From an uncultured Eubacteriales bacterium (GTDB lineage Bacteria > Bacillota > Clostridia > Christensenellales > CAG-917): DNA of 64,000 nt. The stretch lies in assembly GCA_900547975.1 (NCBI GenBank), contig URIX01000002.1:17879-81878 (forward strand). Reading direction: 5' to 3'. A program made the translations under genes and the position numbers. The notes beneath the pieces were generated by a model. It saw only the letters and a list, made by a program, of their open reading frames with translations, ran no database searches and was not told where the DNA came from. Shown in pieces: positions 7,734-50,237 of the stretch; the stretch's first letter is position 1, and every line of letters starts with the position of its first letter.

Positions 7734-7860
7734 ATGCTCGGCAAATGACAATATATTATGTTTGATTTCTTCAATAGCATATGAAAAAATAAGTTTATAT
7801 TTAGAATTGCAGTATGAAATTCAAATCTAAGTTATAAATAATAAACAATCAAAGGTATCA

Positions 7861-7887
7861 AAAAAAGACGAACGAAGTCGTCTTTTG
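7861..7887. terminator. hairpin terminator, one of three copies of the same hairpin
   Basis: AAAAAGACGAACGAAGTCGTCTTTT. The same hairpin occurs at 9040-9066 and, inverted, at 10417-10443. Confidence 0.6.
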
Positions 7888-7997
7888 TTGTATGCAAATA
7901 CCTATTTCGATACAATTTGCGTACACCCCATAAAAAGTGCGTACACCTTGTCAAAATTTGCGTACAGTTAAACGCACCGATAAATTGGAATTTGACG

Positions 7998-8480
7998 TTA
8001 TAATTTCAGTACTGCAATCAATTCTTTCCCATCCATATCTCCTGTTTCCTCAAATCCGAAAGAATGGTACAGGTGTTTGGCAATATCATTTTCGGGTTCA
8101 TATGACAGCCAACAGTACTCTGCTTTACCACAAGGCGATGAGTTTATGAAATCTAACGCCAAACTAAGTGCTTCTTTTCCATATCCCATGTTTTGGAATT
8201 TTCTGTCTATCATAAATCGCCAAAGATTATAATTACCAGAGGCTATTTGGGGGGCATCTTCCCAATAATCGTCTTTGTCAAAACCTATCATCAAAAAACC
8301 AATGGGAGTATCATCCTCATATATTCCAAAGGGATAGGCATAGCCATTTCCTGTTATTGCTGTATATGCTTCAATAATACTTACATCATTACTTGCAACA
8401 AAACCTTCTTGTTCTTTCGCTACTTTTAATTCGAGAATATCCCACACATTCTTTCCGTTAATTCTCTCTAATCGTAACAT
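7998..8480 (-). CDS. GNAT family N-acetyltransferase (diamine/spermidine acetyltransferase-like)
   Basis: The RFMIDRKFQNMGYGKEAL acetyl-CoA binding motif (Q/RxxGxG/A) sits in a 160-aa protein. Confidence 0.8.
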   Translation of the reverse strand: MLRLERINGKNVWDILELKVAKEQEGFVASNDVSIIEAYTAITGNGYAYPFGIYEDDTPIGFLMIGFDKDDYWEDAPQIASGNYNLWRFMIDRKFQNMGYGKEALSLALDFINSSPCGKAEYCWLSYEPENDIAKHLYHSFGFEETGDMDGKELIAVLKL

Positions 8481-8576
8481 ACTTTGCTCCTCACAAAATT
8501 CTTATTTATCGTTGAGTCTATTATAGCACAAATTTCGCATTTTTTCAATACATTCGCCTACCGTATAACGAAAAAA

Positions 8577-8630
8577 CTTTCGTTCCGTAGCAATATCTAT
8601 CGTTCCGTTGATAGACCTTTCGTTCCGTAG
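8577..8630. promoter_or_regulatory. three direct repeats TCGTTCCGT at an exact 20-bp period upstream of the GNAT gene
   Basis: cttTCGTTCCGTag at 8577, ctaTCGTTCCGTtg at 8597, cttTCGTTCCGTag at 8617. Confidence 0.45.
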
Positions 8631-8697
8631 TTGTTTGCTGTAAAAAACAGAACCCTGCAAAAGTGCGGTTAAACATTCCGGCAAGTCATACAAAATT

Positions 8698-8845
8698 TAA
8701 TGAAATCCTGCTTTGCAGGATGAAATCTTAGGTGTGCAACCTCAGATGAAATCAAATCCGCCTCAATTAACCCCGTGTTAGAGGGATTTCATCACAAGGT
8801 GATTTCATCCACGAAGTGGATTTATTCCGACGAAGGCGGATTTAG
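8698..8845. repeat. array of GATGAAATC / GATTTCATC 9-mers interleaved with mini-hairpins
   Basis: (A/G)ATGAAATC occurs 3 times (8699-8753), then GATTTCATC 2 times (8785-8810) plus degenerate GATTTAT and GATTTAG. AAATCCGCC (8753-8761) pairs with GGCGGATTT (8835-8843). Confidence 0.7.
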
Positions 8846-8847
8846 TT

Positions 8848-8889
8848 AAAAAAGACTGCAATTTTGTATCAAAATTGCAGTCTTTTTTT
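8848..8889. terminator. bidirectional terminator
   Basis: AAAAAAGACTGCAATTTT-gtatc-AAAATTGCAGTCTTTTTTT. Confidence 0.75.
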
Positions 8890-9072
8890 GGTGCGGATGA
8901 CAGGACTTGTAGCGAGAGAAACGAGCGTAATAGCGATTGTTGCGCAGTATGCGCCAATCGTGTCAGCTGCACAAGTGCAGGTTGCAAACATTGTTTGCCG
9001 ACAATTGAAAAATTGTCGCAAGTCCGTTGCCGTAACAAAAAAAAGACGAACGAAGTCGTCTTTTGTTGCGTG
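8889..9072 (-). repeat. stand-alone inverted copy of the element that follows tRNA-Leu
   Basis: Reverse complement matches 10414-10590 with only a few substitutions. It ends in CAAGTCCTGTCATCCGCACCA (8909-8889), a tRNA-Leu 3' end copy with one mismatch. Confidence 0.9.
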
Positions 9073-9184
9073 TGTACGGCAAAATCTCGTTTTTCGGGCG
9101 ATTTTCGAGAGTGTGTTGGACGATAAGTACTTTTTTGCGATTGTTATGAAGAGTGTGGTGGATGATAAGCATTGGTTGCTCTGA

Positions 9185-9652
9185 TTAATTTACAAATTCC
9201 AAAACGGTTTCATCTTCATTTATGCGGTACACAAACGGAGAATAGGCTTTTGCTATCTTTGTCCAAAGTTTTTTTGCTCCTACATTTTTCTCGTTGTATT
9301 TTATTTCCCATTTGCCATGATAGATTGATAAAATCAAATTAACTGCATCGATTGCATAATGATTTCTTCGGTAGGAAGGAAAAATCGTAAACTCTGCTAT
9401 CGTATAATCCGGATGATGTCCGATAGCGGAGTATGTATTCAACATAACAAAACCGACCATAATTTCATCATCGTAAATGAAAAAGGCTTTTCTCTCCGCA
9501 TCGGTAAAATACGCATCAAAATATTCGTAATGATAATTTCCTTGTTCGTCCATGTTGTCAGGATAGTACTTTGTCATCTCATACAAATATTTTTGATTTA
9601 TATTCCATAAAAGTTTGCGTTCTTCCGCTTTAACTTCTTGTAATCTGATCAT
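9185..9652 (-). CDS. GNAT family acetyltransferase
   Basis: 155 aa. FTIFPSYRRNHYAIDAV lies at the acetyl-CoA pocket position, and the overall length and pattern fit small GNAT proteins. Confidence 0.65.
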   Translation of the reverse strand: MIRLQEVKAEERKLLWNINQKYLYEMTKYYPDNMDEQGNYHYEYFDAYFTDAERKAFFIYDDEIMVGFVMLNTYSAIGHHPDYTIAEFTIFPSYRRNHYAIDAVNLILSIYHGKWEIKYNEKNVGAKKLWTKIAKAYSPFVYRINEDETVLEFVN

Positions 9653-9735
9653 CTTTATTCCATCGCGTTATTCAAATTTGTCTTTGGTATAATTTTAGCA
9701 TATTATGCGGTGCTTTTCAATCAAACGCATAGGTA

Positions 9736-9776
9736 TAAAAATATCGGTCTGTAAGAAAAGACTTACAGACCGATGC
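9736..9776 (-). terminator. terminator of the tRNA-Gly/tRNA-Lys unit
   Basis: ATCGGTCTGTAAG-tctttt-CTTACAGACCGAT followed by ATTTTT on the minus strand. Confidence 0.75.
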
Positions 9777-9779
9777 GTT

Positions 9780-9855
9780 TGGTGCATCCTCAGGGACTCG
9801 AACCCTGGACCCACTGATTAAGAGTCAGTTGCTCTACCAACTGAGCTAAGGATGC
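9780..9855 (-). tRNA. tRNA-Lys (anticodon CUU)
   Basis: Cloverleaf GCATCCT...AGGATGC-A-CCA, anticodon loop CT-CTT-AA, T-loop GGTTCGAGTCC. Confidence 0.93.
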
Positions 9856-9946
9856 ATATCTCGGCGACAATTACGCTTTATGCGGTCGTTGTCGCTCCCT
9901 AGATATTTTGAACGACCATTGCTGATCGTTCAATTCCGCTTGCGCG

Positions 9947-10104
9947 TGGAGCGGGAGACGGTGTGGTCGCTTTCGCGACAACCTTCGGTGCGAACCCTTG
10001 CGGGTCTGCGATTGCATCGCACTTCACTGTGTGAAGCCGAATCCCGTCAACCGATTGCTCGATTTTCAAAGATTCTTTTTCACTCACACTATCGTTGCTT
10101 CCGT
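9947..10104 (-). repeat. 158-bp insert downstream of tRNA-Gly(GCC), ending in a direct copy of the tRNA's last 15 nt
   Basis: TGGAGCGGGAGACGG at 9947-9961 repeats 10105-10119. Split inverted T-arm module at 10046-10001 (minus strand): CGGGATTCGG, CTTCAC/aca/GTGAAG, TGCGAT/gca/ATCGCA, GACCCG. Confidence 0.85.
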
Positions 10105-10179
10105 TGGAGCGGGAGACGGGATTCGGACCCGCGACTTTCACCTTGGCAAGGTGACACTCTACCACTGAGTCACTCCCGC
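10105..10179 (-). tRNA. tRNA-Gly (anticodon GCC)
   Basis: GCGGGAG...CTCCCGC-T-CCA, anticodon loop TT-GCC-AA. Confidence 0.93.
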
Positions 10180-10328
10180 AAGCACAAATTACTATATCAA
10201 ATCAATTTGCAAAAAGCAACAATTTTTTGCCATAAAGTTAAAAATATTTTATAAAATCAGCATATAACACTCTTAATTTTGTTTTTGCTTTACAGAAACC
10301 GAAATTATGCTATAATAATGATGTTTTT

Positions 10329-10413
10329 GCGGATGTGGTGAAATTGGCAGACACGCAAGATTTAGGTTCTTGTACTATATAGTGTGCAGGTTCAAGTCCT
10401 GTCATCCGTACCA
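10329..10413 (+). tRNA. tRNA-Leu (anticodon UAG), class II with long variable arm
   Basis: GCGGATG...CATCCGT-A-CCA, anticodon loop TT-TAG-GT, 85 nt. Confidence 0.92.
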
Positions 10414-10590
10414 ACAAAAGACGACTTCGTTCGTCTTTTTTTTGTTACGGCAACGGACTTGCGACAATTTTTCAATTGTCGGCAAACAATGTTTGCAACC
10501 TGCACTTGTGCAGCTGATGCGATTGGCACATACTGCGCAACAATCGCTATTACGCTCGTTTCTCTCGCTACAAGTCCAGTCATCCGTACC
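10414..10590 (+). repeat. 177-bp element downstream of tRNA-Leu, ending in a copy of the tRNA 3' end
   Basis: Terminator AAAAGACGACTTCGTTCGTCTTTTTTTT. Module GGACTT, CGACAATT/tttc/AATTGTCG, GCAAAC/aat/GTTTGC, AACCTG (10455-10502). CAAGTCCAGTCATCCGTACC (10571-10590) matches tRNA 10393-10412 at 19 of 20 positions. Confidence 0.88.
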
Positions 10591-10750
10591 CAAAAAGCCT
10601 CTAAGCAGTAGATGTTTAGCGGCTTTTTCATTTTTCGCTAAGAAAAACTGTTTATCTTTTGCCACAAAACAATAAAATCATTGATATTTTGAGCAAAAAA
10701 TTCCAAGAAAATAAAAAGCCAAACCGCCACCGGTGCGGATTGGTAAAGTG

Positions 10751-10924
10751 TGGTGGAGATAAGGGGATTCGTAGGAAGCGACCTGGACGCTTCCGTAATA
10801 GCGTCAGCGTCAGCCCGTAGTGGTTCGCACGGTGAAACCGTGGTGCGATTTTTGAAAAAATCGCGCAATCCACTTATTCCCCACAAAAAAAACAAGCCGA
10901 ACAGAGTTCGACTTGTGTTCTTTT
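10751..10924 (-). repeat. 174-bp insert downstream of tRNA-Ala, ending in a perfect 21-nt copy of the tRNA 3' end
   Basis: TGGTGGAGATAAGGGGATTCG at 10751-10771 equals 10925-10945. Terminator at about 10886-10920. Split inverted T-arm module at 10874-10819 (minus strand): AGTGGATT, two hairpins, CGAACCACT. Confidence 0.88.
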
Positions 10925-16824: not shown

Positions 16825-17867
16825 AAATGACCTTCCGCTGGTATGGCGAAAACGATTGCATACCGCTAAATTACATAAAACAAATACAGGGAATGAGCGG
16901 GGTTGTGACCGCCGTTTACGACACGCCCGTCGGAGAAGTCTGGAAAGAAGAAAAACTTGAAAGGCTCAAAACCCTTGCAAACGACGCGGGGCTTAATATG
17001 GAAGTTATCGAGTCCGTCCCCGTACACGAAGACATAAAACTCGGAAAACCTACGAGAGACAAGTATATCGAAGCGTACAAGCAAAATATCGTCAACTGCG
17101 GAAAAGTCGGCGTCAGGTGCATTTGTTATAATTTTATGCCCGTGTTCGACTGGCTAAGGACAGACCTTTATTTCAAGCATAAAGACGGCGCGACGTCGCT
17201 TGCTTACGATCACGAGAAACTGCTTTCGTTAGATCCCAAAAATCTGCATTTGCCGGGCTGGGACGAAAGTTATTCGACGGAAGAACTCAACAAACTTCTT
17301 GAAGAATACAAGGGAATCGCGCACGAGAAACTGTTTGAAAACCTTGTGTATTTTCTGAATGCGATTATGCCTGCCTGCGACGAATCGGGCATCGACATGG
17401 CGATACATCCCGACGATCCGCCGTGGGATATGTTCGGTTTGCCCAGAATTATTTGCAAAGAAGACGACTACGATAAGTTGTTTAATGCGGTGCCGAATAA
17501 GCACAACGGAATAACGTTCTGCACGGGAAGTTTGGGTGCGGGCAGGTTCAACGACTTGCCGAAGATGGCGGAAAAATATGCAAGCAGGATTTATTTTGCG
17601 CATCTTCGTCAGCTGAGATATGACGGGGAAATAAATTTTTACGAAAACGGACATCAGACCGACTGCGGAAACGTCGATGTGTACGCGATAGTCAAGGCAC
17701 TTGTCGAAAACGGGTTTGACGGTTACGTTCGTCCCGACCACGGCAGAAACGTGTGGGGCGAAGACGCAAAACCCGGATACGGACTGTTTGACAGAGCTAT
17801 GGGTGCGTGTTATCTCACAGGACTGTTCGAGGCGGTTGAAAAGGATATTAAAGGAGAGAAAAAATGA
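16821..17867 (+). CDS. uxuA: mannonate dehydratase
   Basis: MTFRWYGENDCIPLNYIKQIQGMSGVVTA matches the UxuA N-terminus. The true start may be the ATG at 16827. Confidence 0.9.
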   Translation: MKMTFRWYGENDCIPLNYIKQIQGMSGVVTAVYDTPVGEVWKEEKLERLKTLANDAGLNMEVIESVPVHEDIKLGKPTRDKYIEAYKQNIVNCGKVGVRCICYNFMPVFDWLRTDLYFKHKDGATSLAYDHEKLLSLDPKNLHLPGWDESYSTEELNKLLEEYKGIAHEKLFENLVYFLNAIMPACDESGIDMAIHPDDPPWDMFGLPRIICKEDDYDKLFNAVPNKHNGITFCTGSLGAGRFNDLPKMAEKYASRIYFAHLRQLRYDGEINFYENGHQTDCGNVDVYAIVKALVENGFDGYVRPDHGRNVWGEDAKPGYGLFDRAMGACYLTGLFEAVEKDIKGEKK

Positions 17868-38245: not shown

Positions 38246-39075
38246 CTATAAATTGCTTTTGTATCGGTTTTTTTGTTGCAGGCTATATTCTTTCGTGTTC
38301 TGGACAGGCAGGAATAGTAGTAGTGTATATCGCCTGTCATAGTCGTTCCGCTTATTCCGACCATTTTGTGCTTACAATCTCCGCAAATAAGTTTGCCGGA
38401 TAGGATGTAATCGTAAATCTCTTTCTTGCGACTAGGCGCACGCTTATTCTCTTTATGTACGGCGCAGACCTTTGCCCATAACTCGTCCGATATGAGTTTC
38501 GGAAATATGTTATCGTATTTCGTACCTTGACGTTCCACGACTCCGTTGTATTTTGTATTGCGCAAAACGTGATATATCAACGATACTCGTATTGGTTGTC
38601 CGTCACGATTTCTATATCCGCATTCTTTGAAATGCTTTTCTATTGCGTTTGCGGTATAGCCTTGTGCGCACTTGGTGAACATCTCGACGACGAGCGGCGC
38701 TTCTATGGGGTGGGGAACGTATTTTTTATCTATAATATCGTATCCGAAAACGCTGTGTCCGCCCGTTGCGTTGCCTTTGAGCCAACTTTCCCGAAGTCCG
38801 CGATTCACCTTTTGTGTGAGTTCTTCCGAGAAGTATTGGTTGAATCCTTCGAGTATCGTTTCCATCATTCGTCCTTCGGGTGTATCCGTAATGCGTTCCA
38901 TTGCGGACAAAAGTGCAACTCCGTTGTCTTGCAACGTCTTTTTATTGATAACGGATTCAACTTTATTTCTCACAAATCTGTCCAACTTGTAAACGATGAC
39001 GTAAACGTGAGCGAATAAACAAACAAGAACATCGTTGTGCGCACTTTGGACAAGTGTGAAATCGTGAGCGAACAC
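38194..39075 (-). pseudogene. large serine recombinase lacking the N-terminal catalytic Ser region and the C-terminus
   Basis: Starts inside the resolvase domain (VYKLDRFVRN), continues through the recombinase domain and zinc ribbon (LICGDCKHKM...YYYSCLSR...IACNKK), then degenerates. Confidence 0.7.
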
Positions 39076-49787: not shown

Positions 49788-50237
49788 TATACACCTTGAC
49801 GAAAGATACATTGTAATAAACAAGCAAATGCAAAACGGTGAAGTTGTCCCGCCCAAAACCGATAGCGGAAATAGAAACGTACCGATTATCGATGTTTTGT
49901 ATCCGTATTTGAAAGACATAGACTTTTCAAAGCACGAAAGATTGTTCCCGATAAAAGAACACGCATTGCGTGTGTATTTCAAAACGCATTGAAAGCAAGT
50001 GGCTTGGACGGTATGGGTTTTACAATTCATTGCTTGCGCCATACCTACGCAACGAGATGTGCTGAAAATAATGTAAATCGTGTTGTTGTTCAAAAATGGG
50101 TTGGACATTCAACGGCGGATATGACAGAAAACGTTTATACGCACATCAATAATGATTTCGAGAAAGACGAAATCGAAAAATTTAATAAGGGGGTAAACGA
50201 TACATATAATCAAGAAAAAAAGACTATTCGGAAATAA
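49786..50237 (+). pseudogene. tyrosine recombinase/integrase catalytic domain, N-terminally truncated and frameshifted
   Basis: PPKTDSGNRNVPII...LFPIKEHALRVYFKT, stop at about 49990, then in another frame GFTIHCLRHTYATRCAENNVNRVVVQKWVGHSTADMTENVYTHI (the R..HxxR..Y catalytic signature). Confidence 0.8.

Follow-up and report, generated by a model that had tools for sequence, protein, structure and literature searches.

An orphan tRNA-Leu trailer unit as one layer in a stack of small cassettes on tRNA ends in an uncultured gut bacterium

The DNA analysed here, hereafter the window, is a stretch of 64,000 nucleotides (nt) from an uncultured Eubacteriales bacterium (assembly GCA_900547975.1, contig URIX01000002.1, here C2:17879-81878), in which two near-identical sequences flank, in inverted orientation, a short segment that carries three tRNA genes. 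The right-hand copy, or arm, directly follows a tRNA-Leu(UAG) gene, whereas the left-hand copy, here called the orphan, stands behind other genes. We find that both arms are copies of a trailer unit of tRNA-Leu(UAG), and that the orphan belongs, as a single layer, to a stack of small cassettes that lack a recombinase, and is not the scar of a lost tRNA. Taken as a whole, the locus is best explained by an orphan that is a trailer layer in a mobile cassette stack on tRNA CCA ends, with movement that would be site-specific, and by arms that can support inversion of the segment between them; we consider this explanation probable, with considerable room left for others.

A repeat search of the window placed the arms at 8884-9068 and 10412-10596. 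Each is 185 nt long, and they are 97% complementary and separated by 1343 nt, in agreement with an initial annotation of this DNA that had described near-identical inverted repeats of about 180 base pairs (bp) around a 1.3-kb segment. Base-by-base comparison gave six mismatches, at unit positions 107, 108, 117, 167, 176 and 180 from the inner edge. All six are in the outer 79 nt, so that the inner 106 nt are identical; the chance that six randomly placed mismatches would all spare the inner 106 nt is (79/185)^6, or about 0.006. The initial annotation had also proposed a search for the element across the genome. In the whole assembly (1.70 Mb, 80 contigs) the two arms are the only full copies of the Leu unit. 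On contig C1 the core is matched in part, by a single hairpin, behind tRNA-Arg(CCG), and there is also a 31-nt terminator copy described below. The homology of the orphan to the linked unit ends precisely at the unit edges. With two near-identical copies only, and with family members whose ends are templated by their own tRNA, the unit does not conform to a miniature inverted-repeat transposable element.

The right arm (plus strand) lies directly 3' of tRNA-Leu(UAG) and in the same orientation. It has a terminator at 10416-10439 and, at 10571-10591, a 21-nt copy of the tRNA 3' end (CAAGTCCAGTCATCCGTACCC) with two mismatches to tRNA-Leu, one in the body and CCC in place of CCA. The orphan (minus strand) lies instead behind a cassette with a gene of the GNAT type (GNAT2), and then tRNA-Lys. 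It consists of a terminator (9041-9064), an antisense 3'-end copy TACGGCAACGGACTTG, three hairpins and a sense copy CAAGTCCTGTCATCCGCACCA at 8889-8909, which has one mismatch to the tRNA-Leu 3' end. The claims that both copies contain a terminator and that the orphan carries a 3'-end copy of its own are consequently borne out, the former by hairpins detected within both arms. The open reading frames (ORFs) 8805..9038 and 10370..10675 do mirror each other and are located in the arms.

The unit in the arms is a member of a genome-wide family of non-coding modules that stand after tRNA CCA ends. When all tRNAs of the assembly were scanned, at least 11 of the 43 tRNA genes proved to have their 3' end repeated 117-351 nt further downstream, usually over the part from T-loop C56 to CCA (Arg-CCG, Gly-GCC, Leu-UAG, Ala-CGC, His, Gly-UCC, Ala-UGC, Ile, Trp, Ser-GCU and Tyr). 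The common layout is a terminator directly after CCA, an imperfect antisense 3'-end copy, two to four hairpins, often with a CTGACGC...GCTATTA motif as their end, and the sense copy; the Arg and Tyr inserts are tandem doublets. Among the other units of the genome, seven 3' copies are exact over 16 nt, that of Tyr has one mismatch and those of two Gly units have three each. Orthologous units are found 3' of tRNA-Leu(UAG) in the sister species G010, G013, G005 and G012.

Such modules could be RNA-level or DNA-level entities. As a single strand, the Leu unit is predicted to fold into the terminator and a multibranch structure closed by a helix between the antisense and sense copies, with fold z-scores of -5.1 for the linked unit and -4.5 for the orphan. 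This strong predicted structure would suit a unit that is mainly a functional RNA, in which a read-through transcript is cut at the tRNA-like 3' copy and the orphan is a second expressed copy in the 3' untranslated region of GNAT2. Likewise, the long-range helix and the hairpins are kept in sister species, where the cross-species alignment of six rows is too alike to reveal covariation, and three of the tRNA-linked repeats (TLRs) of Escherichia coli are processed small RNAs (PMC8144298). We nevertheless regard this explanation as quite unlikely. Each unit opens with a strong terminator, so that little read-through is expected, and the arms gave no Rfam family match at E values up to 1. The outer UACGG/CCGUA helix that closes the structure is broken in the orphan, because its copy has a C where the tRNA has U72. 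Furthermore, the units are dispensable between strains, and the cassette junctions described in the following would be left unexplained. A functional RNA is compatible with an explanation at the DNA level and is no replacement for it.

The DNA-level explanation starts from the sequence just upstream of the orphan, where the minus strand reads ...CGAGATTTTGCCGTACACACGCA and then ACAAAAG. The initial annotation took the CCGTACA at this point as the remaining piece of a tRNA. It is instead the conserved right end of a GNAT2-type cassette (9067-9779, minus strand), which comprises a left-end terminator (9743-9774), a promoter (9720-9692), the coding sequence (9185-9652) and a conserved right end of about 70 nt (9135-9066) that finishes ...GCCGTACACACGCA. 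A scan of metagenome contigs (L numbers below) for this right end, with two degenerate positions allowed, returned 30 contigs in which the final 55-70 nt or so are conserved, with the consensus ...CGACACACTCTCAAAAATCGCCCGAAAAACGAGATTTTGTCGTACACACGCA (...GAGATTTTGTCGTACACACGCA; terminal part GTCGTACACACGCA), and beyond which the sequence varies contig by contig. The CCGTAC of the window differs from GTCGTACACACGCA by a single T-to-C change. Where an upstream tRNA is present, it is in the same orientation and 267-1148 nt from the right end; it is Lys-CUU in L065 and L089, Pro-GGG in L080, Arg-UCG in L086, Leu-AAG in L088 and Leu-UAG in L092. In five of these six tRNA-linked contigs the left end is also common, namely a terminator in which CCA is followed by AGTGTGATGGTCTATAAGTCTTTTCTTATAGACCATC (AGTGTGATGGTCTATAAG...), the left end of L080 being another terminator hairpin.

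The cargo between these ends varies among contigs and includes GNAT2, an ORF without assigned identity and an AraC-type regulator (motifs judged by eye); in L049, a right end of the family comes directly after type I restriction-modification genes. The GNAT2 cassette itself, 97% identical, directly follows tRNA-Leu(UAG) in L092, and cassettes joined head to tail, ...ACACACGCA running into AGTGTGATGG..., occur in L067, L073, L077 and L087. Because the ends recur behind different tRNAs with variable cargo, the window sequence 9067-9779 is a member of a mobile cassette family. No GNAT2 was found in the 60 relatives searched, 36 of them species of the same genus. The spacer after GNAT2 (9069-9184) contains three spaced CC(A/G)(C/A)CACACTCT-like motifs, the last of which is the cassette terminus; by its arrangement, this array could be likened to arrays of recombinase or transposase binding sites.

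These findings bear directly on the idea that CCGTACA is what a deletion spared of a second tRNA-Leu(UAG), formerly present upstream of the orphan. In its favour are the hexamer CCGTAC immediately upstream of the orphan, which matches the 3' end of tRNA-Leu, and the orphan's own copy, which with CCA counted differs from that 3' end by one base fewer than the linked copy does. Against it, the hexamer lies inside the cassette end of about 70 nt that 30 contigs carry behind Lys, Pro, Arg and Leu tRNAs, and as a T-to-C variant of this conserved terminus it is not a tRNA remnant. In addition, no tRNA is found at that position in any same-species strain or sister species examined, and an 891-nt block with the orphan is cleanly missing from one strain contig, L059. 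A deleted tRNA-Leu paralogue is therefore highly improbable.

On its other side the orphan is followed by a second cassette. The hairpin at 8848-8888, with a perfect 19-bp stem, had been taken for a downstream terminator of the orphan's own; it is the left end of the GNAT1 cassette (7891-8888, minus strand), which goes on with a dyad array, a promoter (8548-8520), a GNAT gene (7998-8480) and four TGTACGCA repeats up to its end ...GGTATTTGCATACA (...GCATACA). The gene matches PF00583 with E = 2.6e-11, and in the contig index an identical protein appears under 474 blocks. The cassette recurs at about 90% identity (window 8893-7883) in unrelated genomes of other gut Clostridia, L055, L057, L060 and L061. 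L055 has it inserted after the CCA of tRNA-Tyr and before the native terminator of that gene, and the other three have it after the CCA of the 3' copy of a Tyr unit. As for its non-coding parts, the dyad array (8698-8845), three TCGTTCCGT repeats (8577-8630) and the TGTACGCA repeats (about 7900-7990) may be protein-binding sites. Two sub-threshold matches to the Gut-1 RNA, at 8688-8757 (plus strand) and 8781-8848 (minus strand), form a dyad in the leader of this cassette; they score 33 and 32 bits, where the gathering score is 50.

The GNAT1 cassette is followed, at the base of this left-hand stack, by a lone third copy of the Leu-type terminator (ACAAAAGACGACTTCGTTCGTC...; 7860-7890, minus strand), which matches the first 31 nt of the unit at 100% and whose homologue follows tRNA-Leu(UAG) in G013. 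Read along the minus strand, the stack runs from tRNA-Lys(CUU) (9780-9855), its head in the window orientation, which ends in CCA, through the GNAT2 cassette (...GCA), the Leu unit (...CCA) and the GNAT1 cassette (...ACA) to the Leu-type terminator. Every layer opens with a terminator right after a ...CA end. Stacks of two to four layers were found in the window and in L054, L059, L061, L067, L073 and L087, with the insertion point fixed at the junction of CCA and terminator.

Same-species contigs, 96.7-98.7% identical over the longest window matches, show that cassettes and units are gained, lost and re-ordered among strains, as they are between species. The GNAT2 cassette and the orphan together form a strain-variable block of 891 nt (8888-9778, minus strand) with a 7-nt flanking repeat, TTGGTGC (GCACCAA on the minus strand). 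In L059, which lacks the block, tRNA-Lys (...GGATGCACCA) runs straight into the 8848-8888 terminator, with edges at the GCACCAA repeat. Similarly, the Gly unit is missing from L054 and L059, with a clean empty site at a 15-nt repeat, and the Ala unit (window 10751-10924) from L050 and L051, with a clean empty site at a 21-nt repeat. Leu units occur in one, two or three copies among strains: two tandem units follow tRNA-Leu in both L054 and L059, and L054 has the orphan as well. The three units of L054 weaken the notion, which we had considered, of a constant unit number with the orphan as a displaced tandem unit (U1). L059 was also seen to have two Ala units.

The 3' copy of a unit can itself receive a cassette. 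Behind the 3' copy of the outermost Leu unit, L054 has a cassette with a GTGTGATGG... left end and L062 a different unit, the right flank differing in each. The breakpoints are all at CCA/terminator junctions, and the sole exception seen is L066 (OHKP01000014.1), where the orphan breaks off at about unit position 121 and is fused to window position 7799, the outer third and the GNAT1 cassette being gone. The initial annotation had offered an autonomous duplicating or mobile unit as one explanation of the orphan. Of this, the mobile part stands, as the unit is a discrete movable module and both the 891-nt block and the sister Gly and Ala units vary between strains; it moves along with single-gene cassettes or in their manner. 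The word autonomous is unsupported, because the unit encodes nothing.

Sequence variants give some indication of how units have been redistributed. The orphans of L062 and L063 have CAGTTG and GACACG variants in common with the tRNA-proximal tandem unit of L059, and the right arm of L062 has TAATTG in common with the distal unit of L059; therefore, units were exchanged between the two positions. The orphan copy ends CATCCGCACCA in six of the six strains that have an orphan, and the tRNA-linked units all end CCGTACC(A/C). We considered the resulting C72 as proof of a Leu/Lys chimera and rejected it as ambiguous, since the tRNA-Leu(UAG) of G005 and G012 naturally ends CCGCACCA.

The inverted position of the two Leu units has a further possible consequence, in that their 106 identical inner bases could support RecA-type inversion of the 1343-nt segment. 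Inversion by homologous recombination had been suggested at the outset, and one contig has exactly the flipped order so predicted. In this contig, L037 (ERZ501515 NODE_27, 38 kb, 3.8x, in two samples), GNAT2 is on the FUR strand and 981 nt upstream of FUR. Over 4518 nt it is 100% identical to the arrangement expected from a flip, and it has the complete right-arm variant pattern, as a crossover in the identical inner 106 nt predicts. Another contig, L042, is 1343 nt long and corresponds exactly to the inter-arm segment. The inner 106 nt are identical between the arms of the window, but differ between the arms at three sites each in L062 and L063. Arm identity in the window strain is thus not simply a matter of constraint, and this comparison of arms suggests that they exchange sequence. 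Finally, the segment has layers of the Leu type on either side, and the final terminator of the left stack is linked to tRNA-Leu in this species and in G013, which fits a tRNA-Leu that once faced left. Altogether, inversion is plausible, with a single sighting, and we give about even chances to both orientations being present in current populations.

A flip would probably leave the transcription units unchanged, because the promoters are internal to the segment (tRNA-Leu, 10289-10316; GNAT2, 9720-9692; and the tRNA-Gly/Lys promoter region) and the same terminators, those after tRNA-Leu and GNAT2, are in the identical inner part of both arms. An inverton or phase switch was considered and rejected: the arms are 185 nt long, there is no invertase within 5 kb, and no promoter or coding sequence is switched. 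We also considered L049, L069 and L083 as an inverted type of adjacency, as in these contigs a terminator of the type that follows the right arm (AAAAAGCCTCTAAGCAGTAGATGTTTAGCGGCTTTTT; 10597-10640, plus strand) stands directly 3' of a cassette right end. They are uninformative on orientation, because the 70-nt spacer end is the generic right end of the 30 contigs. Nor does synteny in the sister species give an ancestral orientation, since at genus level conservation does not extend past the tRNA cluster into the flanks.

As to a mechanism, the layers would move by site-specific recombination, with the crossover placed at the CA of CCA. The most likely enzyme would be a large serine recombinase, which a full-size element with a like junction would provide in trans. 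The orphan could then have arrived within a cassette block, or have been left behind when the tRNA segment turned. When the ends of a GNAT2-type cassette are joined as in a circle, they read GTCGTACACACG-CA-AGTGTGATGGTC (CACACG-CA-AGTGTG), an imperfect dyad round a central CA. Such a layout would be that of a serine-recombinase attachment site, and its central CA would match the CA of the tRNA CCA. In the case of the 891-nt block, the expected circle joint would be ...CATCCGCACCA followed by ACGCATCGGTCTG....

A candidate for a full-size element of this sort is found in L059. This contig (SAYO22-1 scaffold_1) encodes at 618-2261 a large serine recombinase of 547 amino acids with Resolvase, Recombinase and Zn_ribbon_recom domains, and the island of this recombinase ends ...CCCACCA (...CCACTTCCCACCA) directly on the Ala unit. 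The genome of the window encodes four large serine recombinases, of which the closest homologue of the L059 enzyme is that at C13:18668-20212 (70% identical), 7.2 kb downstream of tRNA-Leu(GAG) on the same contig. The C13 element ends ...CCACACGGCACCA (...GGCACCA), which resembles the right ends of the cassettes. Several observations can be placed alongside. In L059 the recombinase gene occupies the place of tRNA-Ala, and its reading frame enters the Ala unit by about 40 codons. The region C13:11420-20240, with a tyrosine recombinase at 16983-17456, may be one element of about 8.7 kb docked on the CCA of tRNA-Leu(GAG); it is followed by a GACCCAGTTGAACCC... type of terminator, which also stands after cassettes in L080, L088 and G013. 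Within the window, a serine-recombinase fragment at 38269-39000, 60% identical to the L059 enzyme over 244 amino acids, and a 120-amino-acid tyrosine-integrase fragment at 49914-50150, beside a tRNA-Lys(UUU) cluster, look like remnants of integrations.

A number of points weigh against this explanation of the locus. No recombinase was found within 5 kb of the locus, and none shows linkage to either GNAT cassette or to the Leu unit; nor is there a dyad at the joined ends of the GNAT1 cassette or of the units. A transposase with a 3-bp CAA duplication fits the ends of the GNAT2-type cassettes equally well. The orphan C72 has two readings, since both a tRNA-Lys end (GCACCA) at the joint and an older tRNA-Leu allele could have given rise to it, and it is consequently silent on history, which may have involved a block insertion or an inversion at CCA ends. 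Regarding inversion, the exact GNAT2 protein is encoded in 22 contigs, at least 19 of them in the window orientation, and the flipped form is known from the one 3.8x SPAdes contig. The join in L037 depends on low-coverage read pairs, because the 106-nt identity probably exceeds the assembler k-mers, and the contig may be an assembly artefact. Its junction ORF is present on L037 alone, and exact-identity look-ups of three predicted ORFs gave 0 matches for the reciprocal junction, although gene callers rarely call such ORFs.

Several of these points would also be expected from a one-off inverted segmental duplication, for instance by a replication template switch, without dedicated mobility and with a single fixed orientation, the flipped contig being an assembly error. 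The genome indeed holds only two near-identical copies, the record of contigs favours the window orientation with a reciprocal junction not on record, and a sister assembly broke at the arm edges (L042, L051), where the repeat was unresolved by the assembler. Nevertheless, the end-points match unit edges and CCA junctions to the base, which makes a random template switch unlikely because it would not respect them. The orphan block is moreover an indel among strains, the two positions have unit variants in common, and like junctions recur for several cassettes in many genomes. We therefore judge a simple segmental duplication to be unlikely, and retain the orphan as a layer in a mobile stack.

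This explanation can be extended, although the extension is tentative and we would not be surprised to see it fail. The trailer units could be movable landing pads that carry a spare recombinase target (tRNA 3' half-site, CA and terminator). On such pads, cassettes with GNAT1, GNAT2 or restriction-modification genes would be captured, stacked and shuffled while the tRNA stays untouched, and pads that move to non-cognate tRNAs and land in inverted position would create invertible tRNA segments. If true, gut Clostridia would possess a counterpart of the integron that works with a serine recombinase.

The potentially invertible segment itself (9069-10411) contains GNAT2, tRNA-Lys, the Gly unit, tRNA-Gly, divergent promoters and tRNA-Leu. 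That it holds three tRNAs and a GNAT gene, as first described, is confirmed by ARAGORN and Rfam for tRNA-Lys(CUU), tRNA-Gly(GCC) (10105-10179, minus strand) and tRNA-Leu(UAG) (10329-10413, plus strand, with its own promoter), and weakly by PF00583 for the GNAT2 ORF (155 amino acids, minus strand; 23.1 bits at a cut-off of 20.7). The strain-variable trailer unit of tRNA-Gly (9947-10104, minus strand) has a 15-nt copy of the tRNA 3' end. The acceptor stem of tRNA-Leu(UAG) is topped by a G1-U72 wobble (...CCGTACCA), at which G005, G012 and the orphan copy have C72.

With regard to significance, what appeared as a repeat becomes a record of how tRNA ends accumulate small DNA layers in a bacterium that, though uncultured, is common in the human gut. 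Such layering can leave long inverted repeats around essential tRNA genes. For annotation, it means that the ORFs in the arms are spurious and that the orientation of the segment in short-read assemblies is not to be trusted. If the link to the recombinase is true, the system would be a compact natural means of gene capture with programmable-looking targets at tRNA CCA ends.

Among known systems, the TLRs of E. coli (Egan & Landy 1978, Rudd 1999) are close in form. They are non-coding repeats directly 3' of tRNA or rRNA genes, often in tandem, whose last 18-19 bp reproduce the 3' end of the gene before them (PMC8144298). Like TLRs, the units described here stand 3' of tRNAs, of which at least 11 are involved, and end in a 21-nt copy (C56 to CCA), save one that is shorter and two that are degraded. 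Unlike TLRs, they open with a terminator and add an antisense 3'-end copy, and the sequences are unrelated. An orphan behind a non-cognate tRNA and a protein gene is likewise undescribed for TLRs. Most TLRs have been without an assigned role since 1978, and the recombinase link, if true, would provide a mechanistic lead on them.

The composite islands of the staphylococcal cassette chromosome (SCC), with CcrAB, offer a parallel for serial integration. The ssrA islands of Dehalococcoides combine the serine recombinase DsiB with 20-bp repeats of the 3' end of ssrA and with accretion in tandem, and 15 islands have no integrase (McMurdie et al. 2011, PMC3146451). Here as there, tandem layers accumulate at the 3' end of a conserved gene, copies of about 20 bp of that end mark boundaries, many layers are recombinase-less ('cis-mobilizable'), and some elements at what may be the same kind of site have a large serine recombinase. 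In contrast to these islands, the layers described here are tiny (about 150-1000 nt, with zero or one gene) and use many tRNAs. The gene cassettes duplicate only CA or CAA instead of 20 bp and have no linked recombinase, and the landing site, that is the unit, itself appears to move.

With respect to inversion, homologous recombination between inverted repeats is well known from rrn operons, insertion sequence copies and tufA/tufB. The present case is similar in its long inverted repeats (185 bp, 106 identical) and in one assembly that is flipped with the crossover in the identical part, and differs in that the segment is just 1.3 kb and that the evidence for both orientations is a single contig. 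The invertons of gut bacteria, in turn, have short inverted repeats and a nearby site-specific invertase, and switch a promoter or coding sequence. A candidate invertible segment bounded by inverted repeats in a gut commensal is reminiscent of these, but its repeats are far longer, no invertase is nearby, and no promoter or coding sequence is switched.

In conclusion, the locus combines TLR-like trailers with an accretion like that of SCC and the ssrA islands. Two features are new in that we did not find them described. Firstly, a trailer unit can take a cassette on its spare copy of the tRNA 3' end. Secondly, single-gene cassettes with common ends move between different tRNAs and species.

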